Positions 4,227 through 27,500 of a DNA stretch of 64,000 nucleotides are shown piece by piece. Source of the DNA: a bacterium (GTDB lineage Bacteria > Chloroflexota > Anaerolineae > Aggregatilineales > Phototrophicaceae); the NCBI GenBank assembly GCA_033764035.1, contig JANRJJ010000026.1, positions 46,840-110,839 of the forward strand. The letters run 5' to 3'. Below the pieces are notes generated by a model. The model was not told where the DNA came from. It worked only from the letters and a program-made list of their open reading frames with translations, and searched no databases. Position 1 is the stretch's first letter. Each line of letters opens with the position of its first letter. A program made the translations under genes and the position numbers.

Positions 4227-4238
4227 ACGGGGCGCACA

Positions 4239-5475: not shown

Positions 5476-5516
5476 ACGACACCCGTTCGCGGGTAAACGA
5501 CACCCGTTCGCGGGTA
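5466..5516. repeat. Tandem 21-bp repeat x2.4, each unit a hairpin
   Basis: TCGCGGGTAAACGACACCCGT at 5466 and 5487, partial copy at 5508; internal CGGGT/ACCCG inverted repeat. Confidence 0.9.
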
Positions 5517-5791
5517 GAGGAAACCCGCAGCAAACCCCTCAGGTTTACTGGCGAACCGGGTTCGCCTTGGAGAGCGACGGCTCAACGCAGTCGTGCAGGG
5601 TGAGGGGTGGTGTCGAGCGAGCATGAATTTGATGGGTTTGCCCCGTTCGTGGGTGAATCTGGGCGTGGTCAGCGCCATGTTCAGCGCTCTGTTCAGCGCT
5701 GCATGATACGAAAGCAGGATACTGCGGCAGGTTCAACCCCTGCCGACCATATCCACTTTATTGCAGCAGGGTGCAAAGGGCTTTCATTCAC

Positions 5792-6550: not shown

Positions 6551-6568
6551 CGCACTCGCATCCACCAG

Positions 6569-6600
6569 TGGGAGAGCGCGCACGGCTCGCCGCTCTCCCA
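6569..6600. terminator. GC-rich hairpin between convergent genes
   Basis: 10-bp stem TGGGAGAGCG/CGCTCTCCCA; no U-tract. Confidence 0.5.
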
Positions 6601-6622
6601 TGCGTGAACCATCAGGCGCGGA

Positions 6623-7815: not shown

Positions 7816-9429
7816 TTACATGCGGAATACCCCGTACTGCGTCTGGCGCAGGGGCGCAGCACAGACAATGCCTAATGCTAACCCCAACACCCGCCGCGTA
7901 TCCAGGGGATCGAGAATGCCGTCGTCCCACAGGCGGGCAGTCGCATAGTACGGGCTGCCTTCGCGCTCGTATTTATCGAGAATGGGCGCTTTGAAGGCGG
8001 CCTGCTCATCGGGCGTGAGGTCGGCCTTGCCTTCCCGCGCCAGTTGATCGCGCTTGACGGTGAGCAGGACGTTGGCCGCCTGTTCGCCGCCCATCACGCT
8101 GATGCGGGCGTTGGGGTACATCCACAGGAAACGCGGGGCATACGCCCGCCCGCACATGCCGTAATTGCCCGCGCCGAAACTGCCGCCGATGATGATCGTC
8201 AGCTTGGGGACGGCGGCATTGGCGACCGCGTGGACGAGTTTCGCACCATCTTTGGCGATCCCACCTGTTTCGGCCTGCTTGCCCACCATGAACCCGGTGA
8301 TGTTTTGCAGAAACAGGATCGGAATCCCCCGCGCCGTACACAATTCGACAAAATGCGCGCCTTTCAGGGCGCTTTCGCTGAACAGCACGCCGTTGTTGGC
8401 GATGATGCCGACCGGGAAACCTTCGATGTGCGCAAAGCCCGTGACCAGCGTCGTGCCGTAGTTCGCCTTGAATTCGCGGAAGCGGCTGCCATCGACGACG
8501 CGGGCGATCACCTCACGCACGTCGTAGGCTTCGCGGAACGTGGCCGGGAGGATGCCGTACAGCTCTGCCGGGTCGTAAACTGGTGGTTCGGCTGGCCGCA
8601 CTTCGACCTGAAACGACTTCGGACGGTTGAGCGTCCCGACGATCTCGCGGACGATGCGCAGTGCGTCCGCGTCATCGTGCGCAAAATGATCGGCCACGCC
8701 CGATTTTTGCGTATGCACCCATGCACCGCCCAGTTCCTCCGCGCTCACCGTTTCGCCCGTCGCCGCCTTGACCAGCGGCGGCCCGCCCAGGAAGATCGTC
8801 CCCGTCCCCTGCACGATCACGGTTTCATCGCTCATCGCCGGGACATACGCCCCGCCCGCTGTGCAGCTTCCCATCACAGCGGCGATCTGCGGGATGCGGG
8901 CAGCGCTCATCACGGCCTGATGATAGAAGATGCGCCCGAAATCGTCGGCATCCGGGAACACCTCATCCTGAAGCGGCAAAAATGCCCCGCCGCTGTCCAC
9001 CAGGTAGATGCACGGCAGATGATTTTCGAGCGCGATCTGCTGCGCCCGCAGATGCTTTTTCACCGTGATCGGGTAATACGTGCCGCCCTTTACCGTCGCA
9101 TCGTTGGCGACGATCAGGCATTCGACTCCGTTCACCCGGCCAATGCCCGTCACGATCCCGGCGGCGGGGGTATCGTCGTCGTACAAGCCCGCGCCCGCCA
9201 GCGGCGACAGCTCCAGGAACGGCGCGCCGGGGTCGATCAGCCCGTCGATGCGGTCGCGCACGAACAATTTACCCTGCTCGCGGTGGCGCTGCTGGTATTT
9301 CGTGCCGCCGCCCTGCCGTGCCATCTCCAGCCGTTGGCGCAGTTCCGCCGCCCATGCGCGCTGCTGCGCCGCATTGCGCGCGAACCCTTCGCTTGTGGTG
9401 TCTACCAGCGATTCGAGTCTGTCCATCAT
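7816..9429 (-). CDS. mccB: Acyl-CoA carboxylase carboxyltransferase, 3-methylcrotonyl-CoA carboxylase beta type
   Basis: [65 protein letters not shown]. Confidence 0.88.
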
Positions 9430-9552
9430 GTCACCCTGCCTGCTACGCCTGGTCGTGTCTTCTTAGCCATACCCAACCCCCGCCTTTTGCGCTATGATTG
9501 CCCGCGTTTCAGTCCTTCTTTCCGTGCCATTTTCCACCGGAGTTCGGTTTCT

Positions 9553-11169
9553 ATGCAGCAAAATTCAGCGAGACGAGCAAGCATCGCCCTGGGCGTGTTC
9601 ATGGTGATTGTACTGGTGGCGGGTGCGATCCTGCCGCTGTTCGGGTCGAACACCACCGTGACGACCCCGGCGGAACCGACCCAGGCTCCCCCAACGGCGA
9701 CTTTTCCGCCGCCGATCACCGATTTTTCAAATATTAGCCTTGATGCCGTTTACCTGCACCCCAGCGCCCTGTTCGCCGTCGCACAGCCCGCCGGGTGGGA
9801 CGATGCCGCCCCGAACCAGACTCTGACTCAGGCCGGGGTGAACATGGTCAACGGGACGGCGCTGAGCGTGGTCGATTATTCGGTCGAACGCCCGCCGACC
9901 CCGCTCACGCCGGAAGAACTCAGCGCCCGTTATACGGAAGATGTGCTGCGCCAAAGCTGGGCGAATTTCAGCAATTGGCGCGAAACCAACCGCCGCATGG
10001 AAGGCGAAAGCCTGCTGATCGATTTTGCCGTCACCTTCCAGGGGCAGCAGTACGTCGCCCGGCAGATTTCGCGCACCGATGGCACCTGGATTTACAACGC
10101 CCGTGTGCTTGCGCCCGAAAATGCGACCGCGCTCGTCACTTACCTCATGGATCAACTGCCGGGGTCGTTCGTGCCGTTCCAGCAGTTTGAAAACACCCCG
10201 TTCGACTGGAACAGCTATTTCGACCCCCAATTCAGCCATGTGATCCGCTTCCCAGCGGGCTGGCAGGTGGCCGATAGCGCCGCCGGTCGGCTGGCTTCGA
10301 TCACGGGGACGGACGGCGAATCGCTGCGCGTGAGCGGCGTTCCGGGGCAAACGGTAGCCGATGAAAGCGCCGCGCAGGCGTTCGTCGAAAGCGCCCGTGC
10401 GGGTGCAGAAGTGCTGAGCATTGAAGCGGTCACACGCGGGGACGTGAGCGGCTACGCAGTTGCGTATCAGTTCGCCAACATCGATGGTGAAGCGCAAAGC
10501 GGCCTGACCGTGCTGCTGAACGAACCCGATCTGCTGCACGTCGCGGACTTGTATTTTCCGGGGCGCGGAATCGACCTGAACACCTACCAGACGCTCCCCG
10601 AAGTGATCGCAGCAGAGGCAGCGACAGCGGCGGAATCCACCCCCGAAGTGGAAGCAACCGGCGAAGTCGCGGATGCATTCGGCGCGCTGGCGGACACGCT
10701 TGGGGCGGATGATGCGGCATCGCCGGACGATGTGTACATCACGTATGCCACCGTGATGGACACGTTCGGCCTGCTCCCGCGTCTGAACTGGTCAAGCGCG
10801 GTGCTGCCGCCGCCCACGCCAACCCCGCTGCCCACCCCCGCCCCGGTCAGCGAGACAACGGCTGAAGCGGAATCAACCGCTGACAGCGAGACGACGGCTG
10901 AAGGCACAGCAGAAGCGACCCCGGTAAGCGAAGCGACCCCGATAAGCGAAACGGCTCCGGTCAGCGAAACGACCCCGGTCAGCGAAACGACCCCGGTCAG
11001 CAGCGCGACGATAGCCCCGGAACCTGCACCCGCTGCGCCCGTTCAAGCGGATACGCCCGTCACGATCAATGTGCCTGTTCACACAGGTGCGCCCGTTGAA
11101 ACCAGCCTACCCGAACCCGAACCTGTTGAACCTGTCCAGCACACGTCGTCATCTGCGGAACCGGAATGA
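9553..11169 (+). CDS. Membrane-anchored or exported hypothetical protein with two similar periplasmic modules and a Pro/Thr/Glu-rich tail
   Basis: N-terminal TM (IALGVFMVIVLVAGAILPLF); FAVAQPAGW and HVIRFPAGW modules; low-complexity C-terminus. Confidence 0.7.
   Translation: MQQNSARRASIALGVFMVIVLVAGAILPLFGSNTTVTTPAEPTQAPPTATFPPPITDFSNISLDAVYLHPSALFAVAQPAGWDDAAPNQTLTQAGVNMVNGTALSVVDYSVERPPTPLTPEELSARYTEDVLRQSWANFSNWRETNRRMEGESLLIDFAVTFQGQQYVARQISRTDGTWIYNARVLAPENATALVTYLMDQLPGSFVPFQQFENTPFDWNSYFDPQFSHVIRFPAGWQVADSAAGRLASITGTDGESLRVSGVPGQTVADESAAQAFVESARAGAEVLSIEAVTRGDVSGYAVAYQFANIDGEAQSGLTVLLNEPDLLHVADLYFPGRGIDLNTYQTLPEVIAAEAATAAESTPEVEATGEVADAFGALADTLGADDAASPDDVYITYATVMDTFGLLPRLNWSSAVLPPPTPTPLPTPAPVSETTAEAESTADSETTAEGTAEATPVSEATPISETAPVSETTPVSETTPVSSATIAPEPAPAAPVQADTPVTINVPVHTGAPVETSLPEPEPVEPVQHTSSSAEPE
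10912..11001 (+). repeat. Coding 18-bp tandem repeat x5 (E[A/T][T/A]P[V/I]S)
   Basis: GAAGCGACCCCGGTAAGC, GAAGCGACCCCGATAAGC, GAAACGGCTCCGGTCAGC, GAAACGACCCCGGTCAGC x2. Confidence 0.9.
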
Positions 11170-11243: not shown

Positions 11244-11702
11244 ATGTCCGACGCGCAAAGCCAAAGCCAGCAAAGCCCCAATACCACCAGCAAGCCTATC
11301 GAGCCAAGCGAAGCGCACGTGCTGGTCGTGGAGGATAATGTCCCCAATTTCGTGCTGATCGCACGGATGTTAGCCTTCATGGGGGTTCAGCGCTGCGAAT
11401 GGAAAACGAGCGGCTGGCAGGTCGTTCAGTTTGCCGATACGCTGCCGCGAGTGGACTTGATTCTGATGGACATTCGCCTGCCTTATGAAGATGGCTACCA
11501 GGCGCTGCAAAAACTGCGCGCCAATTCCCGCCTGAAAGATACCGTCGTGTGCGCGGTGACGGCAGAAGCCAGCGAAGACCAGATGCGCCGCGCCAAAAAA
11601 GCCGGGTTCAACGGCTTTCTGGGCAAACCGCTTGATCCCGACCGTTTCCCTGCACAGATTCGCCGTCTGCTGCAAGGCGAAGAAGTATGGGAATGGAAAT
11701 AG
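11244..11702 (+). CDS. Single-domain response regulator (DivK/CheY-like receiver)
   Basis: VLVVEDN, DLILMDIRLP, AVTA, FLGKP; no output domain. Confidence 0.9.
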   Translation: MSDAQSQSQQSPNTTSKPIEPSEAHVLVVEDNVPNFVLIARMLAFMGVQRCEWKTSGWQVVQFADTLPRVDLILMDIRLPYEDGYQALQKLRANSRLKDTVVCAVTAEASEDQMRRAKKAGFNGFLGKPLDPDRFPAQIRRLLQGEEVWEWK

Positions 11703-11765: not shown

Positions 11766-14081
11766 ATGATGATGAGCGACTCCGCAGGAACTGAACGCAG
11801 CCGGGAAAGTCTCGAAATCCTGTCCCTGGCACAGGCGCAGTACCAGGCTGCCGGGACGATCTACGGGTCGAACAACCCGGCGGAAATTCTGGACGCGCTG
11901 GTCAGCTTTGTCGAAACGGTCTATGAAGAAGCCGAACTGGGGTTGATTGACCCCGAAACCGACCCGCCGATCCTCTCGATCCTGGCCGAATACACCGACG
12001 GGCGCGTCACCCGTTCCCGTAAACGAGTGCGCCTGGACGAATACCCCGCCTACGACACCTACAGCGCGATTGAAGTGCTGAACATCAGCAACGTCGAAAC
12101 CGACCCGTTCATCACGCCGGAAGAACGCGATGGCCTGCGGGCGCTGAACGTGGCATCGCTGCTGGTCGTGCCGCTCGTCGTCACCCAACGGTTGATCGGC
12201 GTGCTGCGCTTCACCAGCGCCCAGCCCGTCAACCTGGGGCCTTCGCGCTTGCGGGCGCTGCGCAACCTGGTCGATCAGGCCGCGGTGGTGTTCGAAAATC
12301 AATCGCTGCTGCGCGATACCGAAATGACGCTTCAGGAAGTGCGGGCGCTGTACGATGTCAACCAGGCGATGCTGGCCGCCGTCGATACGATGGACATTCT
12401 GCGCGTGCTGCGGCAGAAACTCGCGCCGGATGCCGATACCATCCTGCATGTGGTCGCGGTCGATGCGCCAGCCGTACCGACCGATGCTGATGCAGCGCCG
12501 ATGCGGTTTCTGCTGCGGCAGATCACCACGCGCGGCTACGAAAGCGACGTGCAGCAGCCGATTTCCCTGAACGCCAGCGGCCAGCCCTTCGACTCTGACG
12601 GCAGTACCGCGACGAACATCACGCTGGTGGATGATGCCGGGCGCGTGACCGCGCAGACGCGCCACCCCCTGCATGAAACGCTCGTCGCCTACGGCATTGC
12701 CAGCTATGCCGTGATGAACATCCGCGAACGCGGGGCAATTCAGGATTACATCGCCATCACCTTCAAAAATCCGTTCACGTTCGATTCTCGCACCGCCCGC
12801 CTGTACGCCGCCGTCGCTGACCAGACCGCCATCGTGCTGCAAAACCAACGGCTGCTGGGCGAAGCGCAGATGAGCGCCGCGCAAGCGAACAACCAGCTTC
12901 GCACGCTGCAAATTCTGAACAACCTGTCCACGTCGATTGCGGCCATCAAGGCGGAAGATGAACTGCTCAACCGCGGTCTGCGCCTGGTCATCGAAACGCT
13001 CGGCGCGGATCACGGCGGGCTGATGCTGATGGACCCGGCCTTCAGCGTAGGGACGGTGGTCGCGGAATACCCGGCATTGGGGACGTTGGGACAGGAAATT
13101 CCGGTCGCCACCAACCCGATGGCGCAGATGATGCGCGAAGACCCGTACCGGTCGCTGGTGCTGGCGGATGTCGAAACCGATTCGCGCATCCCTGAACAAC
13201 TGCGGCAGTTTCTCGTCAACCATGCGGGCATTCGCGGCATGGTGATCCTGCCGCTGCAAGCGACCGATACGCTGATCGGCTCGATTGGCCTGGACATGTA
13301 CGAAAAAGGCCGCACCTTCACCGACGATCAGTTGCAGACCGCCATCACGATGGCGGCACAGATTGCGATTGCGCTGCAAAATGTGCGCCTGCTCAACGAC
13401 TCCAACCGCCGCGCCGCACAGCTTCAGCGCGTGGCGGAATTCGGCCAGTCGTTACAAGCATCGCTTCAGCAGGAAGAGATTCTCGACCTGATGGCGGGCT
13501 TCACCATGCAGATGCTCGCGGTCGATACCCTGGTGATCGGCCTGTACGACCCATTGCGCGGGGCGCTGCGCATCGTCACGCAGCGGCGTTCAGCCAGCGA
13601 TACCCAGCCGATCAGCAGCACCATCCCGCTGAGCGGCACGCTGCCAGGCCGCGCCTGGGATACGGGTCAAACGGTGGTGGTGGGGGATTTGCTCAATGAA
13701 CGCGGGCTGCCCGCGCTGCCGCATTCGCCGCTGAACACGCGCTCAGCGCTGATCGTCCCGATCATGAGCCGCAGCCAGCCAACCGGGTTGGTGATCGCCA
13801 CCTCCAGCCAGGCAAATGTTTACAACCCGACCGATGTCGCCATTTTCGAGCAGATGGTCACGCAGTTGAACGTCGCGCTGGAAAATTCGCAGGCGTTTCG
13901 CAAAAGCCAGCAGACCGCGCAGTATGAAGCGCTGATCAACGTGATTTCCGCACAGCTTCAGCAGTACACGGCATTAGATGATATGCTGCAAGTGACGCTG
14001 CGCGAACTGGGCAAAGCGCTTGGCGCACGCCGCGCCCGCGCCCGTTTTTCGACTCCGTCGCCATCGTCCGTCAGCGAGTGA
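11766..14081 (+). CDS. Cytoplasmic multi-GAF protein (4 GAF domains, no output domain)
   Basis: Four GAF-terminal helices (FENQSL, LQNQRL, LQNVRL, LENSQA), each preceded by P-x-x-x-G strands; no TM, HisKA or GGDEF motif. Confidence 0.82.
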   Translation: MMMSDSAGTERSRESLEILSLAQAQYQAAGTIYGSNNPAEILDALVSFVETVYEEAELGLIDPETDPPILSILAEYTDGRVTRSRKRVRLDEYPAYDTYSAIEVLNISNVETDPFITPEERDGLRALNVASLLVVPLVVTQRLIGVLRFTSAQPVNLGPSRLRALRNLVDQAAVVFENQSLLRDTEMTLQEVRALYDVNQAMLAAVDTMDILRVLRQKLAPDADTILHVVAVDAPAVPTDADAAPMRFLLRQITTRGYESDVQQPISLNASGQPFDSDGSTATNITLVDDAGRVTAQTRHPLHETLVAYGIASYAVMNIRERGAIQDYIAITFKNPFTFDSRTARLYAAVADQTAIVLQNQRLLGEAQMSAAQANNQLRTLQILNNLSTSIAAIKAEDELLNRGLRLVIETLGADHGGLMLMDPAFSVGTVVAEYPALGTLGQEIPVATNPMAQMMREDPYRSLVLADVETDSRIPEQLRQFLVNHAGIRGMVILPLQATDTLIGSIGLDMYEKGRTFTDDQLQTAITMAAQIAIALQNVRLLNDSNRRAAQLQRVAEFGQSLQASLQQEEILDLMAGFTMQMLAVDTLVIGLYDPLRGALRIVTQRRSASDTQPISSTIPLSGTLPGRAWDTGQTVVVGDLLNERGLPALPHSPLNTRSALIVPIMSRSQPTGLVIATSSQANVYNPTDVAIFEQMVTQLNVALENSQAFRKSQQTAQYEALINVISAQLQQYTALDDMLQVTLRELGKALGARRARARFSTPSPSSVSE

Positions 14082-14092
14082 GGGTTTACGCG

Positions 14093-15796
14093 ATGACTGC
14101 CCTGCTCAAGTGGTTGTTCAACATCGAACAGTACCCAGAACGTGCCGACCAGGATATGGCTCGCCTGACCTACGGCGTGACCTTCGTGCTGATCGTGTTC
14201 ATGCTGTTCATCAATTTCCTGGTGCCGTTCCTGGACGACGGTGGGTCGATTGCGTCGTTGTTCGGTACGTCGTTGTTCATCACCGTTTCCATGATTCTGA
14301 TGGTGGTGCTGGGCATTGGCACACTGGCCGCGGTGCGCACAGGCCGCCTGGATTTAGCCCGGTGGGGCGTGCCGCTGCTGTTCGTGGGCAGCCCGCTCTT
14401 TCAAAGCATCGGCACGGGCATTACCGGGACGGACGACGGCACACTGCTGGTCTTGTGCATCCTGGTCTTTGCGGTCTTTCAGCGCGAACGCGGCACGCTG
14501 ATCGGCTTCGTCGTGGCGATAGGTGCGCTGCTGCTGGGCAACTGGCGGCTGACAACCACCGACCCAACGCTGATCGACAGCCTGCCGAACCAGATTGCGC
14601 TGACGGTACAGCTTGTGGGCGTAGCGATGCTCATGTTCCTGTTCCTGCGCAACAACCGCATCGACGAAATGCAGCGCGTCAGTGCCGCCAGCGAAGAACG
14701 CCTGAAGCTGGCCGAGCTTACTCGTCAGATCGCCGGGAGCGTGTTACGCCGCACCGAACTGCAAGCGACTCTGACGACAGCCATCGAAGAAATTCGCACG
14801 CAGTACCCGCGTGCCTATCACGTCCAGATTTTTTTGGTCGATGAAGCGCGCCGCAACGCGAAACTGGCTGCCAGCACGGGCGAAATCGGCCAGATGCTTC
14901 TGGGACGCGGCCACAGCCTGACCGTCGGCAGCGTGAGCGTGATCGGCCAGGTGACGGCGAAAAACGAGATCGTGGTCGCCCGTTCCGGTTCGACGGCGAC
15001 GGTTCACAAGCGCAACGAATTTCTGCCGGAAACCGTCGTCGAAGCGGCGTTCCCGCTGCGCAGCGGGACGACCGTAATCGGCGCGCTGGATATGCAGAGC
15101 AAACAGGCCAATGCATTCCCGGACGACGAACTGCCGATCTTCCAGGCGCTGGCCGACAACATCGCCATCGCCATTGACAACGCCCTGCTGCTGGAACAAG
15201 CGGAAGTGCGCGTCGCGGAAAACAAACGCCTGGCCGAACAATCCGCCCAGGCGCTGCGCGAAGTCGAACGCCTGAACAGCCAGCTCACCGCCGATTCATG
15301 GCGCGACTACCTGGCCACCCAGGGCGCGGGCGGGGTGACCATCGATTTCGACAAGTATGAAACCACCACCCGCAGCGCCGATTTCACGCCCACGCTTTCT
15401 GAAGCGCTCCGTTTCAGCCATGTGGTGCAGCGTGAAACCGACGATGGGTTGATCATCGCCGCCCCGGTGCTGGTGCGCGGCCAGGTGATCGGCGCGCTGG
15501 AACTGGAACTGGAAGGCAAAGACCCGGTCGATCCCCAGGTGCTTGACCTGATCGAAACCGTGTGCGAACGGCTTGGCCTTTCGGCGGAAAGCGCCCGTCT
15601 GTATGAAGAAAGCCGCCGCGCCGCCCACCGCGAAGCCACGCTGAACGAGATCGCCAGGCAGATGCAGGCGACCAACTCGATCAACACGATCATGGCCGAA
15701 GCTGCACGCGGGATTCAAAGATCGTTCGGCGCGGAGCGCGTCGCCATTCGTCTGGGGCCGCCGCCTTCCGCGACGAACGGAACCCGGAAGGAGTAA
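14093..15796 (+). CDS. Membrane protein with about 6 TM helices, GAF and reduced GAF, no output domain
   Basis: Hydrophobic N-terminal 200 aa; YHVQIFLVD..ASTGE..SVIGQVT..GALDMQS; alternative GTG start at 14078 overlaps the upstream stop. Confidence 0.82.
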   Translation: MTALLKWLFNIEQYPERADQDMARLTYGVTFVLIVFMLFINFLVPFLDDGGSIASLFGTSLFITVSMILMVVLGIGTLAAVRTGRLDLARWGVPLLFVGSPLFQSIGTGITGTDDGTLLVLCILVFAVFQRERGTLIGFVVAIGALLLGNWRLTTTDPTLIDSLPNQIALTVQLVGVAMLMFLFLRNNRIDEMQRVSAASEERLKLAELTRQIAGSVLRRTELQATLTTAIEEIRTQYPRAYHVQIFLVDEARRNAKLAASTGEIGQMLLGRGHSLTVGSVSVIGQVTAKNEIVVARSGSTATVHKRNEFLPETVVEAAFPLRSGTTVIGALDMQSKQANAFPDDELPIFQALADNIAIAIDNALLLEQAEVRVAENKRLAEQSAQALREVERLNSQLTADSWRDYLATQGAGGVTIDFDKYETTTRSADFTPTLSEALRFSHVVQRETDDGLIIAAPVLVRGQVIGALELELEGKDPVDPQVLDLIETVCERLGLSAESARLYEESRRAAHREATLNEIARQMQATNSINTIMAEAARGIQRSFGAERVAIRLGPPPSATNGTRKE

Positions 15797-15800
15797 GCCC

Positions 15801-17459
15801 ATGAGCGCCCGTTTTTCCAGCATTTCATCGCTCGCACCCACGTTGGGCGACCTGCAAAAGCTGCGCACGCGCTTCATACAGGCGTTCAGCGCTATGCTGA
15901 CCGTTGCCTCCCTGCTGCTCTCGGTCGTGCTGTTCGCGCTGCCCGCGCTCGATACCGCCCAGCCCATCGGCCTGAATACCCGCGTGTATACCCTGGCGAT
16001 TGGGGCCGTCAGCACGGTTCTGTTGGTGCTGTCGCTGCGCGGCTATTCCCTGTTCGCGGCCATCGGCCTGATTGCGGCGCTGACGGGGATCGCGCTGGCC
16101 GCCCCGCCAGATACGCCCGCGCTGGGGCTGCTGGCGCTGATTGCGGCGGCGGCGCTGTGCAGCCGCCCGGTGTTCATCGCCCTTGCGCTGGTGATTGCCG
16201 GAAAAATGGCGCTCGAAATTGCGCAGTTGATCGCCGCGACCGAAACCCTGTCGTTCGAGCTGGTGCGGTTCATCCTCACCCGGCTGCTGCTGCTGGTCAT
16301 CCCGCTGATCATCCGCTACGTGTTCGAAGTGACCGAACGCAGCCTGGCCGAAGCGCAGCGCACATCGATTGTGCTGCGCACCAGCGCGGAAATTGGCGCG
16401 GCCAGCACCCAGCTGACCGACCTGAAAACCCTGTTCGACCGCGTGATCGACCTGGTGCAGGAACGGTTCAACTTCTACCATGTGCAGGTGTTCGTGATCA
16501 ACGAAACGGGCGACCAGGCCGTGCTGCAAGCCAGCACGGGCGAAATTGGGCGGCGGCTGCTGGCACGCAGTCATCAGCTCGCCGTCGGGTCGCAGAGCGT
16601 GATCGGCCAGGTCACGCTGCGCGGGGAACCGGTCGTCGCGCTCGATACCGACCGCGATGAAGTCCATTTTCGCAATGAACTGCTGCTGAACACCCGTTCC
16701 GAACTGGCCGTGCCAATCCGCGATGGGGCGGTGGTGGTGGGCGCGCTGGACGTGCAAAGCATCGAGCCGAATGCCTTCGACCGCACCGACGTGGAAGCGC
16801 TTCAGGTGATCGCAGACTTTTTGGGGACGGCGTTGCGCAATGCGGCGGTGTACGATGAACAGGCGCGGGTGGTGCAGCAGAATCAAGCGCTGCTGCGCGA
16901 AGCGGAGGAAAACATCCGGCTGATTCAGCGGTTGAACCGCGAACTGACCCGCGCATCGTGGGAATCGTTCAGCCAATCGGATGCATCGCCGTTGGGCATT
17001 CAGGCCAAAGGCGGCCAGGTGGTCGCCAACCCGCACTGGACGGACGCGCAAAAGACCGCCGGGGAAGAACGCCGCACGGTCACCCAGCAGGACGGGGAAA
17101 AATCGCTCGTCGCGGTGCCGCTCATGCTGCGTGGAGAGGTGATCGGCGCGCTGGAAGTGGAGAACACCGGGCAGGCCGACACCACGACCGTCGCCATGCT
17201 GGAAGATGTCGCGCAGCGCTTGGCGATCAGCCTGGAAAATGCCCGCCTGTATGAAGACTCGCGGGATGCCACCGCCCAGGAACAGTTCATCAACACGCTG
17301 GCGGCGCGCTATCAATCGGTCACATCGGTGGATGAACTGCTGCGGATGACGCTGGTCGAACTGAGCGAGACGCTCGGCGCGACGCGCGGGTCGATCCGGC
17401 TGGGCAAACTCGAACTGGCGAATGACGCGCCAGTCAGGAACGGAGCAGCCGAAACATGA
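15801..17459 (+). CDS. Membrane protein with TM bundle, GAF and reduced GAF, no output domain
   Basis: TM helices followed by FYHVQVF..ASTGE..TRSELAVP..GALDVQS. Confidence 0.82.
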   Translation: MSARFSSISSLAPTLGDLQKLRTRFIQAFSAMLTVASLLLSVVLFALPALDTAQPIGLNTRVYTLAIGAVSTVLLVLSLRGYSLFAAIGLIAALTGIALAAPPDTPALGLLALIAAAALCSRPVFIALALVIAGKMALEIAQLIAATETLSFELVRFILTRLLLLVIPLIIRYVFEVTERSLAEAQRTSIVLRTSAEIGAASTQLTDLKTLFDRVIDLVQERFNFYHVQVFVINETGDQAVLQASTGEIGRRLLARSHQLAVGSQSVIGQVTLRGEPVVALDTDRDEVHFRNELLLNTRSELAVPIRDGAVVVGALDVQSIEPNAFDRTDVEALQVIADFLGTALRNAAVYDEQARVVQQNQALLREAEENIRLIQRLNRELTRASWESFSQSDASPLGIQAKGGQVVANPHWTDAQKTAGEERRTVTQQDGEKSLVAVPLMLRGEVIGALEVENTGQADTTTVAMLEDVAQRLAISLENARLYEDSRDATAQEQFINTLAARYQSVTSVDELLRMTLVELSETLGATRGSIRLGKLELANDAPVRNGAAET

Positions 17460-19249
17460 TCGGTGAAGTGCGCATCCCTTTGCTGCAACTGAATTACCCG
17501 TATGGCGACCCGCTGATCCGCCAGCGCGCCCAGGCGCTGCTGTACATGATCGCGATTGTCGCGCTTGGATGGGCAATTCTGCTGGTCATCACGCTTTCCC
17601 AGGTCGCGGACGAGATTTACGAGCCGGGGTTCATCATCCCGACGATTGTCGCGCCGATCAGCTATGTGTTCATCTATCGCCTGGTGCAAACCGGGCAGGC
17701 GCAGTTGGCATCGCTGCTGTTCGTCAGCCTGATGCTGATCGGCACTGCGCCCGTCGCCATCATCAGCCCGGAATTGTTCCTCAGCTTCCTGCTGATCATT
17801 CCGCTGGTGGCGGCGGGGGCGCTGTTCAACCGCCTGGGCTTTCTGGTGGTGCTGGCGGTCATCCTGGTGGCGCTGCTCACACGGGCGTTCGTGCTGCTCA
17901 ACGTCGATACCGTCATCCGCTATATCCCATCCGTCAACGGCGCGGGCGAAATTGCCCTGGCCGGGCTGGTGATCGTGATCGCGGCGGTGTTCCTGTTCGG
18001 CTTCACGGGCGGCACCGAACGCATCGCGCAGAGTTCGCTCAACGACCTGCACCACTGGGAGCTTTTCGCCCGCCTGAACCTGCGCGGCGAAACCGACCCG
18101 GATCGCATCGCACAGCGCTTGATCGACTTGCTTCAGGCCGAACTCGATTACAACCTGGTGCAGATTTATTTTGCCGACGAAACCGGCAGCATCACCCGGC
18201 GGGTGCGCAGCGGCGGCGCGGTGGATCGCCAGTTCAGGGTGCGCATCGACGAACTGCCGACGATTGGCGAAGTCGCCCGCGAAAAGCGGCTGCGCGTGTT
18301 CCGGCGCGATTCCTCCACGCTGCGCGAATACCCGCTGGCTCCATCCCGCATCGGCATCGCCCTGCCCATCCTGTACAACGGAATCGTGCTGGGCATCCTG
18401 GATGTGCAAACGCGCCGCGCCGATGCGCCGTCGGAAAACCAGATCAACGCGCTGAGCGCGCTGGCCGATGCGCTGGCCGAACTGCTGATCAATGCGCGCC
18501 GCCAGACCGAACTGCAAAAGACCGTAGCCGATCAGGAAGGCGTGATCGCCACCTTCCGCACCCGGCTGACCGAACTGCAACAGCGCGGCGCACAGCTCGT
18601 CGGCGGGAACTGGATGCGCTACCTGGAAGGGCGCGGCGGCCAGGCGTTCGGCTTCGATGTCGCGGACCACACCCCGGGTGGCACCGACGGCGACTTTGGC
18701 AGAGGCGACCGCACCCCGGAAGGCAAAGCCGTCCCCCGCCCCGCCCATGACCTGCCGCCCGCCATTCGTGAGGTGCTTCAGCGCGGCGACCTGTTCATCG
18801 AACCGGGCGCGGACGGGACATCGGTCGTGCATGTGCCGATTCTGCTGCGCGAAGAAGTGTTGGGCGGCATGATGTTCACGCTGCCGCCGGAACGCCCGCT
18901 GACCGACCGCCAGATTGAAGCGCTGCGGGCGATCTCTAACCGTCTGGGGCAGTCGCTCGAAAACAACCGTCTGTTTGAACAATCCCAGGCCCAGGCGCAG
19001 CGCGAACGTAAAGCCAGCGAGATCAGCGCCCGCCTGCTGAGCGCGACGACGATTGAGAACCTGCTCGATTTGGCGGTGATGAATTTCAACGACGCGCTCG
19101 GCGCAATTTCGACACGGGTCTATATTCAGCCGGATTTCGTCCAGCCGGATACCTTCCGCCCAGACGCACCCGACCCCGCGCACCCACCCACCCGCAGCGG
19201 GAACGGGAACGGAAATGGTGCTGCATCGCACGGCGCGAACGGCGCATGA
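17456..19249 (+). CDS. Membrane protein with TM bundle, divergent GAF and reduced GAF, no output domain
   Basis: ATGA overlap with previous gene; TM helices; IALPILYNGIVLGILDVQT; VPILLREEVLG..LENNRL. Confidence 0.8.
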   Translation: MIGEVRIPLLQLNYPYGDPLIRQRAQALLYMIAIVALGWAILLVITLSQVADEIYEPGFIIPTIVAPISYVFIYRLVQTGQAQLASLLFVSLMLIGTAPVAIISPELFLSFLLIIPLVAAGALFNRLGFLVVLAVILVALLTRAFVLLNVDTVIRYIPSVNGAGEIALAGLVIVIAAVFLFGFTGGTERIAQSSLNDLHHWELFARLNLRGETDPDRIAQRLIDLLQAELDYNLVQIYFADETGSITRRVRSGGAVDRQFRVRIDELPTIGEVAREKRLRVFRRDSSTLREYPLAPSRIGIALPILYNGIVLGILDVQTRRADAPSENQINALSALADALAELLINARRQTELQKTVADQEGVIATFRTRLTELQQRGAQLVGGNWMRYLEGRGGQAFGFDVADHTPGGTDGDFGRGDRTPEGKAVPRPAHDLPPAIREVLQRGDLFIEPGADGTSVVHVPILLREEVLGGMMFTLPPERPLTDRQIEALRAISNRLGQSLENNRLFEQSQAQAQRERKASEISARLLSATTIENLLDLAVMNFNDALGAISTRVYIQPDFVQPDTFRPDAPDPAHPPTRSGNGNGNGAASHGANGA

Positions 19250-19265
19250 ACGGAGTTAGCCAACC

Positions 19266-21557
19266 ATGTTGACATCGTCCCGCCGCTTAAGCGCGCTCAA
19301 CCCCCTGTCGTACCCCATCTGGCTGAAGCTGACGCTGGGGTTCGCACTGGTGGTGGTGCTGGTGATCCTGCCCGCGCTGTTCCTGCTCAGTTCGGGTGTG
19401 GAGGCCATCGCCTTACAGAATGCGCGCTCGTTCCTTTCCGAAAATGGCACCCGCCAACTGAGCAGCGTTGCCAGTTCGTTTGAACGGGCGCGCGCCAACC
19501 TGGATCGGTTCGTGGAAACGCCCTTCAACAACCGCCAGTTGGTCGGTGCGCTGTTGGGCAATGCCGCCGAACGGTCGGATATTGGGCTGGTCGATGTGAA
19601 CCCGGCGGATACCGCCGCCCTGATGGAATCGATCCTGCTCAACCCGGCGACATCGCTGTACGACAACGTGCGCCTGCTCGACCGCGATGGGCAGGTCGTC
19701 GCGCTGGCCGGGCTGGCCCCGTTGGGCGTATCGCTGATCGATCAATCGCAGACGGCGGCCTACCAGGTCGCGGCGGGCGATACCACCGGCGAAACCAGCC
19801 TGCTGGTGATTTCGCAGCGCGGGTTTCCGGTGCTGGAATTCGTCCACAAAATTTACTGGCGCGATAATTCGGTGATCGGTTACATGGTCACCCAGTTGAG
19901 CAATGCCCGCGCCGTGTATGCGAATCTGCGGTTTCGCTTTCCCAACGATGAACCCTTTGAAGCCTATGCTTTCCTGATCGACGAACAGGCGGTACAGCTC
20001 ACCCCGGTGGAAAACCGCGAACAGGCCGCCAACAGCCTCGCATCGGAAGGGGTGCGGCGGGCGCTGGATGGTCAGAGCGGGTTGGAGGTCTACAGCCCGG
20101 CGGGCAGCGAAAACAACCCGAACGCAGAGGTGATCGGCTATTTCGCACCCGTGCCGGGGACGACGCTGGCGCTGGTGTCGGAACTTTCGCTCGACAGCGT
20201 GCGCCAGGACGTGCTGTCATTTCTGCCGCTGCGCGGCGCGGTGGTGGCCATTGGCTGGGTCGGCATGGTCATCGTGCTGGGCATCCTGTTCAATCAACTG
20301 TTCGCGCCGCCGCTGGCCCGGCTGCGCCGCGCCGCCCTGGGGATGATTGGCGGGGATTATGAAACGCCGCTGCCGGATGTGCGGCGCGGCGATGAATTCG
20401 GGGAAGCGGCCAGCGCGTTCGTGCAGATGCGTTCGCGCATGAAAACGATGGTCGATGAACTGGAATCGCGGGTTGCGCTGCGCACCCGCGATATTGAAGC
20501 CACCCAGGAAATCAGCCGCTACGCCGCCACCCAGCGCGATGCAAACGCGCTGATGCGCGACGTGGTGAACCTGATCGTGCAGCGCTTTCCGGCGATTTAC
20601 CACGCCCAGATTTTCCTGATCGACGCGGACAGGCAGTACGCCGTCGTGCGCGCCAGCACGGGCGAAGTGGGGCGGCAGCTTCTGGAACGTGGGCATCGCC
20701 TGGGCGTGGGCAGCGTGAGCGTGATCGGCCAGGTGACGGATCAGGGTCGCTATATCCTGGCGAAAGATGCCGCCGTCAGCCAGGTACACCGCCGTAACGA
20801 ATTTCTGCCCGATACGCGGTCGGAACTGGCGATTCCGCTGCGCGTGGGCGAAACGATCATCGGGGCGCTGGACGTGCAGTCGAAGCAGTCCGACGCATTC
20901 CCCGACGACATGATCCGCGTGCTGGAAACGATGGCCGACAACATCGCCATCGCCATCGAAAACGCCCGCCTGTATGAAGAATCGGTGCGGCGTGTGCGCG
21001 AAATTGAGGATACCAACCGCGAAGCCACCCGGCGCGCCTGGCAGGATTATCTGCGTGACCAGCGCGTGTTAAGTTTGAGCCGTGAAGCGGGCGTGCCGCT
21101 CACCCAGGACGATACGATCTCCGAACTGCGCCGCCGGGCGCTGGCGACGGGCGAAATTGCCGTCGGTGACCAGACAGGACGGAATACCTACCCGGTCGCG
21201 GTGCCAATTCAACTGCGCGGGCAGACGCTTGGCGCGGTAGAATGGGAGCTGCCCGCGGGCGATTTCAGCCGCGAAAAGCTCGAACTCGCCCGCGAACTGG
21301 CCAACCGTCTCGCGCTCAGCCTGGATAACACCCGGCTGTTCCAGGAAAGCCGCCGTGCGACCGAACGCGAACGGCTGGTCAACACGATTGCGGCGCGGCT
21401 GACGGCGCAGACCAGTATCGATCAGATTTTGCAGACGGCTGTCCGCGAAGTGGGTCAGGCGCTGCGTGCGCCGCAGGTGACGATCCGGCTGAAGGGCAGC
21501 GAGTCGGCGGCAGGGCTGAACCAACCTGCATCGCCATTACCGAATGATCACGAGTAG
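19266..21557 (+). CDS. Cache-like/HAMP/GAF membrane sensor without kinase domain
   Basis: TM, extracytoplasmic domain, TM, HAMP (PLARLRRAA..RGDEFGEAA), GAF with ASTGE, reduced GAF. Confidence 0.82.
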   Translation: MLTSSRRLSALNPLSYPIWLKLTLGFALVVVLVILPALFLLSSGVEAIALQNARSFLSENGTRQLSSVASSFERARANLDRFVETPFNNRQLVGALLGNAAERSDIGLVDVNPADTAALMESILLNPATSLYDNVRLLDRDGQVVALAGLAPLGVSLIDQSQTAAYQVAAGDTTGETSLLVISQRGFPVLEFVHKIYWRDNSVIGYMVTQLSNARAVYANLRFRFPNDEPFEAYAFLIDEQAVQLTPVENREQAANSLASEGVRRALDGQSGLEVYSPAGSENNPNAEVIGYFAPVPGTTLALVSELSLDSVRQDVLSFLPLRGAVVAIGWVGMVIVLGILFNQLFAPPLARLRRAALGMIGGDYETPLPDVRRGDEFGEAASAFVQMRSRMKTMVDELESRVALRTRDIEATQEISRYAATQRDANALMRDVVNLIVQRFPAIYHAQIFLIDADRQYAVVRASTGEVGRQLLERGHRLGVGSVSVIGQVTDQGRYILAKDAAVSQVHRRNEFLPDTRSELAIPLRVGETIIGALDVQSKQSDAFPDDMIRVLETMADNIAIAIENARLYEESVRRVREIEDTNREATRRAWQDYLRDQRVLSLSREAGVPLTQDDTISELRRRALATGEIAVGDQTGRNTYPVAVPIQLRGQTLGAVEWELPAGDFSREKLELARELANRLALSLDNTRLFQESRRATERERLVNTIAARLTAQTSIDQILQTAVREVGQALRAPQVTIRLKGSESAAGLNQPASPLPNDHE

Positions 21558-21575: not shown

Positions 21576-24500
21576 ATGTCGATGAGCAGCTCACCCGAAA
21601 CCCGGCGCAGAACGGCATCGGTTCGCACCCGCATCATGCGCCCGATTGCGTTCGTCGTCCTGGGCATCTTCCTGATCCTGGGGTTGTCCGGGCTGTTCGG
21701 CATTCAGGCTTCATCCCGTGCGATTATTCGCGGCGCGCATCTTACCGATATTACCCTGCTGCGCGAACAACTGAACGATGCGCTGAGCGATGTCACCACC
21801 GATGTCCGCGCCGCCGCCAATGACCCGGTGACGCGCCGTTTCGCCACGACATCGCTGGCGAGCGTGGTCGGTGAAGATGTCAACCTGGCCCAGGCAGCGC
21901 TGGCCGAACGCCTGGAAGCGCTGGTCAACGATCATCTGGATACTTACCTGGCCGTGCGCTATGTCACCTTCACCGGGGCAATCTGGACGGAAGTCACCAA
22001 CGCCGGCGGGATCACCCGTGCGGCTACGCGCATCCGCCCGAACGAACTGAACGACGACCCCACGCTCGTCACCGCGTTGGGCGGCACCAGCGGCGACGTG
22101 ATTGCCAGCGATGTCGATTTCCGCGTGAACAACGATGCGCCCGCTTCGACCCGGTTGATCCCGTTCGTGCGCTTCGCATCGCCCGTGTTCACCGAAACCA
22201 GCACGACCGACATTGCCGGGGTGATCCAGATCGATTTCGCCATCCCCCAGGTGATCAGCCAGATCAACGCGACGGGCGCGGCGGTCATCGCCGCCCAGGA
22301 AGGCCGCCGCCTGCTGGTGGTCGATGATGAAGGCCGCATCCTGGCCGACAGCGGCCAGCCGAACACGAACTTTCTGCGCAACATCGCCAATCGCGTCCCG
22401 GTGGTGTTCGACCAGGCGTACCCGGTGCTGGCTGCGGCGGTCGAAAACATCGAAACGGTCGATCTGGCCGAATCCGACGATCTGATCTACACGGTCGATC
22501 AGCTCGATTTTTCCAGCGGCGCACAGCGCTTCTGGCGGCTGATCCTGGTCGATGAACGCGGGACTGCCGCCGCCTACCAGGTTTACCTGGGGTTGGGCGT
22601 GCTGGTGCTGTTCATCGGTTTCGGCGGGGTGGTGGCCGTGCTGATTGACAGCGTGGTGTCGCGCAATCTGCGCCCGCTGCGCGATGTGGCCGACCTGACG
22701 CAGACGATAGGCCGCAGCTATACCGACAGCCGTGAGCCGCTGGAGACGGGCGACGAGTTCGGCCAGTTGATCGAAGCGTTCGAATCGATGGCTTCCGAAC
22801 AATTCCGGCTGCGCGACGAACTCGAAGCGCAGCGCGGACGCTTCACCCGCAACCTGGATATTGCCGCACGCATCGGGCGCGAAACGCTGAGCCTGCGCGA
22901 AGGCGATACGCTGATCAACCGGGCGATCAACCTGATCTGCGACGAGTTCGGCTACTACCACGCTCAGTTGTTCCGCATCGACGATGCCGGGCTGAACGCG
23001 GTGCTGGTGGTCAGCCGGGGCGTGATTGGCCAGGAACTGCTGGCGCGGGGCTACCGCGTACCGATCAACGATGCGTCGGTGATCGGCACGGTCGCCGCGC
23101 ACGGCCAGCCGATCCTGATTCCCGATGCCACGCTGAAGGCGGGCGACCAGGCCGATGAAGCCGAAGGGCTGCTGGCCGAAACGCGGTCGCAGATGGCCGT
23201 CCCGCTGCTGAGCGGCGGTGAAGTCATCGGCGTGCTGGATGTGCAAAGCCAGAACGTGAACGACTTCCGCGAAGAAGATTTGCGTATGGTGCAAATCCTG
23301 GCGGATCAGATTGCGGTGGCGCTGGAAAATGCCCGCCTGCTGAAAGAGACGAGCGAACGCCTGACCGAGATCGATTCGCTCAACCGCCAGCTTTCGAGCG
23401 GGCAGCAGCAGGCGGAGACTCTGAATACACAAATCGACAGTGTGTACCGTTACGACCTGCTCACGGTGAAGCGCGGCGGCGATACCGGGCCGCTCTCGTC
23501 CGACCAGCCGAGCATGACCATCCCGATCAGCATTCGTGGTGAGGTGATCGGTGCGCTGGAGGCCGCCGCGCCCCAGGGAATCGATTTCACTGCGGGCGAT
23601 GAGGCGATCATGCGCGCCGTCGCGGACCGCGTGGGTATTGCGCTGGAAAATGCACGCCTGTTTGAATTGCAGCAGTCCAGCCTTCAGGAAACTTCCCGGC
23701 TGTACGAACTGGTACGGGCGCTGAATGAAGCCAACAGCCTGGAAGATGTGCTGCATTCCATCGTGATGTCGGTCATCCCGGATGCGGTCAGCGTGCAGAT
23801 CGGCGTGTTCGACGAATATGCCGACTCGACTGGCCCACTGTGGATGGAAATTCTGGCCGAATGGACGAGCCAGCAGGAAACGCAGCGCGATGTGCGCATG
23901 ATGGGCATTCAATTACATGTGCCGGATCATCCGCTGCTGGCAGCCATGCAGCCCAACCAGATCACGCTGGTGAACGATACCGAACGCGATACGCGCCTGG
24001 ACGACGTGTTACGGGCGATCATCGCCACGACGGGCGGACGGTCGATGGTGCTGATCCCGGTCACGGTGCGCGGCACCTGGCGCGGGGTGATGATGGCGCA
24101 CTTCCCAGAACCCCGCACGTTCGGCCTGGAAGAAGGCCGCGTGTACAACGCACTGATCGACCAGGCGGGGGTCGTGATCGACAACCGTATGCTGCTGCGC
24201 AGCAACGAGATCACCCTCAAGCAGGTGGAGCGGTTGTACTCCGCCAGCCGTGCCATCAATATGGCGCAGACCGCGCAAGACCTGGTGCGGGCGGCAGTGG
24301 GCGGCAACGACAACCTGTACCGCGATTATGAACTGGTGATGTTTGAAGGCGACATCGATGCGAGCGGCTGGCCGACGCGCATTCGGCTGGCGGCGTATTC
24401 CGAAGGCACCGACGTTCAGGCCAGCAGCGATGTCTACGATGTGGTGATCGCCACCGATTCGCCGCTGCGCTACCGCGAACCGCAGATCATCACGCCCCAG

Positions 24501-27500
24501 GGCGAAATCGATGACGACGATACGCCGCACGCCAACAACCTGACCCAATATGTGCGGCAGCGCGGCAACCGCTTCGCCGCCGTGTTCCCGCTGTTCAGCG
24601 CCAACCAGCCGATTGCGCTGTTCCTGGTGACGAGCAAAGAAGCACGTGAAGAAATTTCATCGGAAGACTTTGACGTGTACCGCGCCCTGACCGGGCAGAT
24701 GAGTACGGTACTGCAAAACCGCCGCCTGCTCGACCAAACCGCCGCGTCGCTCGATGAAACGCGCCGCCTGTACGCCGCCAGCCGCGCCATTGCCACCGCG
24801 CCGGATAAAGAGACGGTGTACGAAATCGCGGCCCGTTATTTGAACATGACCAACGCCGCGCAAACCAGGCTTTCGGTGCTGCTTACCCCATCGCAAAGCG
24901 CAGATGCGCCGTTCGTCGAATATACACACCTGTTCACACGCGGCACGGCGTACACGTCCGATATTGATGTGGGGACGCGCATCCCGTCATCGCTCGTGCC
25001 GTTCGGGGAGCTGACGCGGCAGGCGCGTACCCAGGCGTTCAACCGCTCCAGTGAACTGGCCGTGCAGCCTGCCCTTCACGCGCTGATGCAGCGCAGCGGC
25101 AGCCTGAGCGCGGCGATCATCTCGATCCAGTCGCGTCAGCGCTGGTTCGGCGTGATCTTCTGCGAAAGCGATAAACCTGCCGCCTTCGACGATGCGTATC
25201 TGCGTTTTGCTCAGGCCGTTGGTGACCAGGTGGCGATTGCGGTCGAATCGCTCAGCCTGTTCAGCGAAGCCCAGCAGCAGGCGCAGCGTGCGCTCGCGCT
25301 GGCGGAAGCGGGACAGCTTGCCAACCAGATCGGCGCGCAGTTCGAGAAAAGCATCGGTGAAGTATTCCGCCGCGTGGCCGAACCCGCCGCCTATGACCGC
25401 TGGATACTGATGCTCCATTCGCCTGGTCAGCACGGGCTGCGCCGCGTGGCCGAATACAACGTCGATACCGGGCTGATCGACAGCGATGCGCCCGGTTCGC
25501 TCATGCCGCTCAACGTGGTGGGCGTGCCGCTGCTCGATGCCTTCCGCCTGGGACGGACGCTGCTGGTCAACGACCCGTCCAGCTACCCGAACTTCCCGCG
25601 CAACTATGCCGGGCTGGACGATTTTGGCGATTACATCGGCAAGCATGTCGCCGTCCCGGTGTTCAGCGGCAGCCAGACCATCGGCGCGCTGGCGGTTGGG
25701 CGGCGGCTGGACGCGCTCGACCTGGACGAGAGTGACGAACAGCTTGCGCGCACGCTGGCCGCCCAGGTCGGCATCGCGGTCGAAAACCGCCGCCTGTTCG
25801 TGGAAGCGGAAAGCGAACGTTCCAATCTGCGCTCGATTCTGGAAACGCTGCCAGCGGGCGTGCTGGTGCTGGATGCCCGCACCTTCACCCCGGTGCAGTT
25901 CAATCAGCAGGCGGTCGAACTCTTGGGCAGGTCGATCAGCATCAGCAGGCCGTTCGATATTGGCGAATACAACGTATACCGCGCCAGCAGCCGCCAGCCG
26001 TTCGCCAACGACGAACTGCCAATCTTTGAATCGGCGCGCAGCGGCAGGCTGGCCAGCAGCGACGATGTGATGGTCATGCTGGAAGATGGCAGCGCCAATT
26101 ACCTGCTCGTCAACGCCGCGCCCATCGTCGATGCCGGGGGTTCCACGACCGCCATCGCCGCCGCTTTCCAGGATATTTCGCGGCTGCGCGGTTTGGAAAC
26201 CACGCTGCAAGAGACGCTGAATGAAACGATGGCGCTGTACGATACCACCCGCGCCCTGGCTGCCGGCACGACGCTGGAAGCGCTGCTCGACCAGATCATC
26301 AACCGGCTGGGGACGCTGCAACCCGCGCCCGATAATGCCTTCGTGCTGCTGCTGGAACCGGAAGGGCTGCGCGTCGCCCGCGCCCTGACCACCCCCACCG
26401 ATGGCTACAGCCTGCCGGACGAACTGCTCACCCCGGACGTGACCATGTTCATCCCAGATGTGGCGGACGATCTTTCGCTCGATGATGCGGTGCGGCTGGC
26501 GCTGCTCAAACAGAACATCCGCGCCGTCGCCAGCCTGCCCATGCTCACTCGTTCCCGCGCCCAGGCTCCGCTGGGGTGGCTGGTGGTGGTGTACCAGCAA
26601 GCACAGGAATCGCTGATCGAACGGGCGGGCTTTCTGGGCAACCTGGCCGATAACGCCGCTGTCGCCATCGACAACCGCAACCTGTTCCGCGATACCCAGG
26701 CCGCTTTGCAGGAGGCCAACAACCTGTACCGCGCCACCACCACCATCAGCCGTGTGAGCGGGACGGAACAACTGAGCGAAGCGCTGCGCAGCACGATTGA
26801 ATCGCTGAAGCCGGATGTGATGGCCGCGTACCTGTTCGTGGACGAACAGGGATCGCCATTCGTGACCGAACTGTTCAACGAAAACCAGGATGGCGCGCCG
26901 CTCGATTTCGCCATGCTGATCGAACGGCACGGCCTGGGGCAGGTCAATGCGCTGTTCATCAACGATCTGCGGGCGATCACCGACCCCAACCCGTTGGAAA
27001 TGGCCTTGCAGTCCGTCGGCACGATCCGCGCCCTGGGGCTGATCCAGATGCGTTCCAAGACCCTCCCCGCTGGCTGCCTGATCGTCGGGTATCACCGCCC
27101 GCGTACCTTCGATGAAAGCATTGCCCGGTATCTCAGCGCGATCAGCGACAGCGCATCGGTCATCATCGACAACATTCTGCTGTTCGGGCAAATTCAGAAC
27201 ACGCTGGAAGAAACCAGCACGCTCTACCAGGCCAGCCGCGCCCTTTCGGATGCGGCCAACCCGGTCGATATTCTCGATGTGGTGACGGCGCATCTGCACA
27301 GCCACACCCGCACGATCAGCACGGCATTCGTGGCGATGCTGGTCACGCGCAGTTGGGAAAGCCCGAACGCGATGGTGCGCGTAGCGGCAAGCTGGCGCAA
27401 CCCCGCCGAAGCCGATGAAATCGTTGACCTGGCCGGGATCACGCTTACGGAAGAACAGTTCCCCGCGTGGAAACTGCTGGCCGTGAACGATGTGTACACG

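Follow-up and report, generated by a model that had tools for sequence, protein, structure and literature searches.

The window analyzed here, a stretch of 64,000 nucleotides (nt) from a member of the Phototrophicaceae (Chloroflexota, Anaerolineae), contains five consecutive genes, T1 to T5, whose products are built of GAF domains, have no output domain and all finish in a related tail of 44 amino acids (aa). We found that this tail, which we call the stub, is the first third of a GAF domain (α1, α2 and β1; that is, helix, helix and first strand). It is structured, strongly conserved and almost exclusively C-terminal, and for these reasons it is a functional module, not debris. As to its role, we tentatively favor the view that the stub is the output or interaction end of these kinase-less sensors, serving for stub–stub pairing and/or for coupling to the histidine kinase encoded in the same cluster.

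The stub as the beginning of a GAF domain

The five C-terminal peptides listed in a preliminary description of this DNA, made from its letters alone, were all found exactly as quoted in five consecutive output-less GAF proteins (coordinates in Table 1). In T1 to T5, respectively, the tail is followed by 10, 13, 18, 40 and 21 low-complexity residues and then by the stop codon. The description had each protein stop after the first strand; it is true that nothing structured lies beyond the strand, but 10-40 variable residues intervene before the stop. In homologs of T3, and in the window at 17403-17456, this extension often ends in a loose N-G-(A/G/S)-rich motif (NGAAET, NGGSPS, NGGSSHE). Pfam and NCBIfam detected GAF domains only, plus HAMP in T5, and no output domain in any of the five proteins; the NCBIfam matches, to GAF-containing regulators, were all partial and below threshold. 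Scanned by themselves, the five tails match no Pfam family at E ≤ 10.

A 44-column hidden Markov model (HMM) of the tail was built from T3 relatives together with T2, T4 and T5, with T1 left out, and searched against the 38,746 six-frame open reading frames (ORFs) of the 4.7-Mb genome. Exactly T1-T5 were matched, at 43-83 bits, the T1 tail scoring 43 bits with an independent E-value of 6e-11. The runner-up in the genome reached 10.6 bits, and the remaining GAF starts of the genome gave no score. Since the model matches exactly five proteins of the genome, the tails are specifically related to each other and are not generic GAF starts.

What the tail corresponds to can be read from T5 and the giant hybrid histidine kinase encoded directly after it. 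Residues 319-729 of T5 are collinear with residues 337-733 of the kinase (32% identity over 418 aa). The alignment covers the second transmembrane (TM) helix, HAMP, GAF, coiled coil and a reduced GAF, and continues across the stub into the first part of the complete third GAF of the kinase. In a distant Chloroflexota kinase (G136), too, a complete GAF begins with a stub-like sequence (27.6 bits), and hhalign places the stub, weakly (P 0.014), in register with the GAF start of the T3 family. The stub shares with the canonical N-terminal α1-α2-β1 of GAF domains of the GAF_2 (PF13185) type a helix, an S/T-h-D turn, a second helix and an L-G-A-x-x-G-x-I-x-L strand.

Structural models agree with this correspondence. 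AlphaFold2 monomer models were obtained from shallow alignments of 21-29 sequences. In the model of the last GAF of T1 with its tail (predicted local distance difference test score, pLDDT, 87; predicted TM-score, pTM, 0.76), the real GAF start is formed by helices 2-23 and 27-41 and strand 46-53. At the other end of the same model, α5 is prolonged as a single 44-residue helix (146-189), followed by a loop, a helix (195-210) and an unpaired segment at the place of β1; the α1-loop-α2 geometry of the tail repeats that of the true GAF start. In the C-terminal model of T3 (pLDDT 82), the reduced GAF is compact, with five strands, one helix and α5 (pLDDT 94-96). Beyond it lie two helices, of 45 and 16 residues, and then an unpaired G-x-x-G-x-I-R-L segment (pLDDT ~88). 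DSSP assigns no strand within the stub of either monomer model. The disorder that the preliminary description had considered for the tails is thus not what the models predict, the tails being structured with pLDDT of about 80-90. Foldseek matched the T3 model to GAF domains, and the best matches of the whole T1 model were GAF-PHY and GAF-GAF tandems (8w26, 5lly, 6ptx, 3lfv and 3ibj; 213-237 columns, 219-237 for 8w26, 5lly and 3lfv; TMq 0.59-0.71). Because these best matches are tandem domains, the tail superposes on the beginning of the next domain. In the GAF-GAF and GAF-PHY junctions of phytochromes and phosphodiesterases (8w26, 5lly, 3lfv, 3ibj), α5 likewise continues into the next first helix; in contrast to such tandems, the stub proteins lack the next domain and the first strand has no sheet. 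A complete five- or six-stranded sheet with a closing C-terminal helix is not present in the stub, and the protein ends 10-40 aa past the first strand. Thus, the reading of the tail as the helix-helix-first-strand start of a GAF, already put forward in the preliminary description, is borne out by the T5/kinase alignment, the AlphaFold2 models, Foldseek, the G136 kinase and the hhalign register.

The stub takes the same architectural place as the DHp (HisKA) hairpin, which is also a helical hairpin continuing the last sensor helix, and a dimer of stubs would form a DHp-like four-helix bundle. The stub is, however, unlike DHp in that it has no phospho-acceptor His, no H-box and no sequence similarity to it, its second helix is short (16 aa) and no catalytic domain follows. 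Indeed, the stub consensus contains no conserved His, and the stub gave no HisKA match.

A tail that has the look of a domain cut short may raise the suspicion of frameshifted, pseudogenized or recently truncated GAF genes. That look is the one thing such an artifact would account for, and we give it practically no chance of being correct. GAF HMM matches occur in the annotated frames only, no GAF remainder being found in other frames, and this confinement excludes a frameshifted remainder. The rest of the GAF, which the preliminary description had suggested looking for in downstream frames, is accordingly absent, and the genes abut or overlap (the gene after each of T1-T5 starts −4 to +19 nt from the preceding stop). 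Moreover, hundreds of clusters and 39 of 41 related genomes share the end point, and no part of the protein is more strongly constrained than the stub. On the strength of the conservation data, the abutting genes and the lack of GAF sequence in other frames, the frameshift or pseudogene explanation was rejected.

Spread, inheritance and constraint

At E ≤ 1e-3, a stub profile made from 12 sequences matched 2215 protein clusters represented at 50% identity; at the stricter E ≤ 1e-10, 178 were matched. The preliminary description had proposed a profile search for C-terminal enrichment, and the enrichment turned out to be nearly complete: 139 of the 143 stub matches in the listed representative proteins lie within 80 residues of the C-terminus, and 388 of the 391 stubs in the window and 95 related loci end no more than 80 aa from the stop (median 14 aa left). 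Homologs of T3 make up more than 640 clusters, with lengths held tightly at about 535-555 aa, and homologs of T1 some 40 clusters of about 750 aa; the stub is retained in all of these proteins, with 5-46 residues after it. The stub also terminates other, unrelated architectures, including PAS/GAF proteins of 978-1545 aa, and there it comes after a complete GAF. The same arrangement is found in T1, whose last GAF (aa 570-706) spans Pfam profile positions 5-136 of 136, and in the proteins P0262, P0297, P0310 and P0312. A rare internal stub occurs at aa 718-760 of P0275 (1274 aa; 30 bits). In locus L096 (G012:C7), at 3391-6780, T3-like and T4-like genes are joined in one 1130-aa frame without a stop between them, leaving the first stub internal; either the genes are truly fused, or a stop codon has been lost.

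Of 41 genomes from the same genus or order, 39 have arrays of 3-9 stubs within about 10-15 kb; in an even sample of the phylum, only 13 of 121 genomes have them. The related loci belong to Aggregatilineales, Phototrophicaceae and Anaerolineales. In other families of the Anaerolineae, an array can comprise as many as about a dozen stub genes. In databases, the stub proteins are named merely "GAF domain-containing protein", and a full-text literature search found no published description of the stub or the operon.

The preliminary description reasoned that five independent truncations at the same point are unlikely. This argument finds no support, since the five genes are ancient paralogs that retain the same order in dozens of Anaerolineae genomes, and T5 is collinear with the kinase through the stub. 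T1-T5 inherited one stub, and the cut was probably made once and then passed on. The ancestral event would have been a single truncation of a kinase-like sensor. Today the stub marks a large Anaerolineae family of sensors that have input domains and lack an enzymatic output, the inputs being cytoplasmic GAF/PAS rods, polytopic membrane domains, or a periplasmic domain with HAMP.

The tails are anything but unconserved, a possibility that the preliminary description had left standing. With a mean column entropy of 0.90 bits, the stub is the least variable region of the T3 family, followed by the main GAF (1.20), the coiled coil (1.31) and the reduced GAF (1.69); the membrane part (2.55) and the sequence after the stub (2.57 bits) vary most. 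Helix 1 of the stub has a heptad-like seam of conserved positions with a Glu conserved at 95%, helix 2 has a broad conserved hydrophobic face (8 of the 13 positions 141-153), and the strand has its I and L conserved at 80-82%. Given this broad face of helix 2 and the conserved I and L, a two-helix hairpin cannot bury all of this surface. At the same time, each gene position has a stub signature of its own, conserved over 34 five-gene operons, for example LGArraRiRl in T1, R.PqVsIRL in T5, and a degenerate form lacking the Asn and IRL in T4.

Possible roles of the stub

In the models, the last helix of the preceding GAF is prolonged into the stub, forming a single long "spine" helix on which a helix of 16 residues folds back, and the nearly invariant G-x-I-R-L strand has no sheet. 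If this hairpin is the output end of the sensors, its conserved hydrophobic face, which normally would pack on the GAF sheet, would instead be a protein–protein interface. Such an interface would pair sensors stub with stub, in homo- or heterodimers, and/or couple them to the single hybrid kinase, and several different inputs would converge on one kinase and its receiver-fused pyridoxal phosphate (PLP) enzyme. The identity of the stub, its conservation and terminal position, its operon context and its monomer fold are established here, and the contacts of the stub and the direction of signaling are inferred. Two considerations favor the output-end reading. First, the stub is the only element common to all kinase-less members, it stands at the position of an output domain and it is their most conserved part. 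Second, in the models, it exposes a conserved hydrophobic surface together with an unpaired strand.

Several points weigh against this. A plain structural cap explains most of the same facts, since a spine that does not enter a kinase needs an end, whereas the kinase needs none. Gene-specific stub signatures speak against one common docking site, and no acceptor site was identified in the window's kinase. Covariation offers no help either. Mean-field and pseudolikelihood direct coupling analysis (DCA), confounded by paralogy, was run on 477 distinct segments consisting of reduced GAF and stub (effective number of sequences, Meff, 397). It recovered β-hairpin pairs (67-76, 68-75, 27-34), sheet-to-α5 pairs (70-103, 71-108) and a pair between the incoming helix and α5 (8-112). 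Pairs between body and tail (for example 106-141, 5-149, 80-146 and 44-135) as a set exceeded a free shuffle of tails. When tails were shuffled within subfamilies, however, the maximum reached 1.12-1.53 against the observed 1.42, and the top-10 mean 0.97-1.19 against 1.21. As the subfamily-confined shuffle attains the same values, the tail–body signal is mostly shared ancestry and provides no evidence of contact.

We regard the cap as possible, albeit somewhat less likely than the output end. On this account, the stub passively terminates or stabilizes the helical spine of a (homo)dimeric GAF rod without carrying a signal, packing on its own chain or on an identical partner, and the sensors act via other surfaces or as ligand buffers. 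The spine helix is indeed continuous from α5 into the stub in both models, and of all DCA couplings in the domain, the hairpin contact within the stub (132-145, z 8.7) is the strongest. That the kinase, whose spine runs into the DHp domain, is stub-less is explained equally well, and the gene-specific signatures are consistent with each stub having adapted to its own protein body. On the other hand, a passive element is not expected to be the most conserved segment of a protein, nor would one expect it to retain a nearly invariant I-R-L strand that is unpaired, together with a hydrophobic surface larger than the hairpin buries. Furthermore, capped sensors would still need an output interface, and no other shared candidate is evident.

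A different possibility is that, through circular permutation or through strand complementation in cis, the reduced GAF and the stub together form one complete GAF. GAF profiles match the domain preceding the stub in T2-T5 over their C-terminal part only, and some DCA pairs join stub helix 2 to α5, β5 and the incoming helix of the reduced GAF. In P0275, a reduced GAF comes immediately after the internal stub, and one chain thus contains the two pieces in the order of a canonical GAF. We nevertheless consider this improbable. The DCA body–tail signal is matched by the within-subfamily shuffle. The reduced GAF is modeled as a self-contained five-stranded domain (pLDDT as given above), with the stub strand pairing with nothing, and reduced GAFs occur without a stub, for example three in a row in a 624-aa kinase. 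In T1 and in many large PAS/GAF proteins, the GAF that precedes the stub is complete. Since the stub is found behind both complete and reduced GAFs, it does not represent a circular permutation, and cis permutation was rejected as a general explanation.

The output-end reading also has a more specific extension, which we think unlikely: the stubs might be trans-acting plugs of a GAF-based receptor array, each sensor docking by its gene-specific stub on another stub, on a reduced GAF or on the kinase rod. In the window, five stubs stand against five reduced GAFs, four of them in T2-T5 and one in the kinase (aa about 600-703, with no stub after it). By this count, T1 alone would be an "orphan" donor, having no reduced GAF of its own, and the kinase alone an "orphan" acceptor, having no stub. 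The balance does not hold in other operons, where reduced GAFs outnumber stubs.

Kinase-less partners that act by direct contact are known: the GAF-only nitrate sensor NreA acts with NreB, and RetS with GacS. As in these pairs, a kinase-less sensor is encoded beside the kinase that it would modulate. Unlike in them, 3-12 paralogous sensors here share a dedicated terminal module. The logic of many receptors with different inputs, one conserved distal module and one kinase is shared with chemoreceptor arrays, in which methyl-accepting chemotaxis proteins (MCPs) signal to CheA. In addition, Anaerolineales-type clusters carry a ParA-like ATPase, as ParA-positioned chemoreceptor clusters do; the window has no ParA gene. 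However, no MCP signaling domain, CheA or CheW was found in the cluster by Pfam and NCBIfam, which detected only GAF, HAMP, PAS, HisKA, HATPase and receiver (REC) domains; the resemblance is one of functional analogy only.

Output-less sensors are usually dismissed as being incomplete or impossible to interpret. In the present case an entire bacterial order, along with members scattered over the class Anaerolineae, keeps 3-12 of them in fixed order before one kinase, and the part they share is a retained domain fragment. If the fragment is the signaling end, it shows how a domain piece may turn into an interaction module and would define a new architecture connecting many sensors to one kinase. 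If the stubs were in fact plugs docking in trans, five to twelve inputs would be wired into one kinase controlling a receiver-fused PLP enzyme, an MCP-unrelated solution to the problem solved by chemoreceptor arrays. Even as a mere cap, the stub is a clean marker outside Pfam, usable to annotate more than 2000 protein clusters.

The gene cluster and its relatives

The stub genes are part of a single + strand cluster that spans 11.2-32.2 kb of the window (Table 1). A simple hydropathy scan suggests that T1 is cytoplasmic, that T2-T4 have about five N-terminal membrane helices each, and that T5 and the kinase each have two membrane helices flanking a domain of about 280 aa. The kinase, analyzed with Pfam in sliding pieces, has the domain order TM, HAMP, GAF, reduced GAF, many GAFs, PAS, GAFs, HisKA, HATPase and two REC. 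One of its late GAFs (aa 2061-2228; 27738-28241) scores 189.8 bits with the HMM of the T-protein main GAF, compared with 153.3 bits for the kinase's own first GAF, which hints at domain exchange between sensors and kinase.

Table 1. Features of the sensor–kinase cluster in the window
Feature	Position	Strand	Remarks
Single-domain response regulator	11244-11702	+	First gene of operon; Pfam Response_reg 1.8e-19
T1, 771 aa: cytoplasmic multi-GAF protein without output domain, stub-terminated	11766-14081	+	Pfam GAF only
Stub 1 (T1 aa 718-761)	13917-14048	+	After complete GAF
T2, 572 aa: polytopic membrane part, GAF, coiled coil, reduced GAF, stub	14078-15796	+	
T2 coiled-coil end and reduced GAF before stub	15305-15622	+	Pfam GAF profile positions 90-131 only; alignment
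Stub 2 (T2 aa 516-559)	15623-15754	+	
T3, 552 aa: polytopic membrane part, GAF, coiled coil, reduced GAF, stub	15801-17459	+	
T3 coiled-coil end and reduced GAF	16920-17270	+	AlphaFold2 fold; Foldseek GAF matches
Stub 3 (T3 aa 491-534)	17271-17402	+	83 bits with stub HMM
T4, 597 aa: polytopic membrane part, GAF, coiled coil, reduced GAF, stub	17456-19249	+	
T4 reduced GAF	18662-18994	+	Pfam GAF_3 profile 46-129 at aa 427-503; alignment
Stub 4 (T4 aa 514-557)	18995-19126	+	Most divergent class, without Asn and IRL
T5, 763 aa: two TM helices with periplasmic domain, HAMP, GAF, coiled coil, reduced GAF, stub	19266-21557	+	
T5 coiled-coil end and reduced GAF	20997-21359	+	Alignment; GAF HMM
Stub 5 (T5 aa 699-742)	21360-21491	+	
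Giant hybrid histidine kinase, 2960 aa, stub-less	21576-30458	+	Pfam on sliding pieces
Kinase segment positionally homologous to stub (start of complete third GAF)	23682-23813	+	Collinear T5/kinase alignment
PLP enzyme (threonine-synthase-like) fused to receiver	30455-32203	+	Conserved final gene of cluster; Pfam PALP 3e-72, Response_reg 6e-20

The order response regulator, T1, T2, T3, T4, T5, kinase and PLP-enzyme-REC recurs in dozens of loci, and a small response regulator gene stands ahead of the array in several related ones. For 78 arrays, 900 nt or more of downstream sequence is available, and in 61 of these a kinase-like ORF comes next; in 9 of the other 17 a kinase comes after an interposed ParA/MinD-type ATPase, bringing the total to 70 of 78. 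The downstream kinases of arrays never bear a stub. The interposed gene belongs to Anaerolineales-type clusters, where a 261-aa ParA/MinD-type ATPase (AAA_31, 2.8e-51) follows the last stub gene, ahead of the kinase where one is found (L009, at 9428-10216 on the minus strand of the locus, and L066, L067, L068, L069, L076, L077, L081, L085, L087 and L090).

The PLP-enzyme-REC gene follows the kinase in the window and in every related operon with enough downstream sequence (L001, L005, L007, L009, L011, L067, L080 and L087), and the receiver-fused enzyme is likely the end point of the pathway. Directly after it in the window, at 32212-34669, lie genes for a 414-aa REC-HisKA-HATPase protein and an EamA-family transporter, which may be members of the same cluster. 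Just upstream of the operon, 9541-11169 encodes a secreted or membrane-anchored protein with a repetitive C-terminus rich in Thr, Pro and Glu and with no Pfam match.

Two further kinases were seen in related loci. The 624-aa kinase mentioned above (G059:C2, L011/L012, ORF 13353-15227) consists of three units of coiled coil and reduced GAF followed by the kinase core. The other, of 1049 aa (G081, L009, ORF 28183-31332), starts with about 80 low-complexity residues, after which comes only the last third of a GAF.

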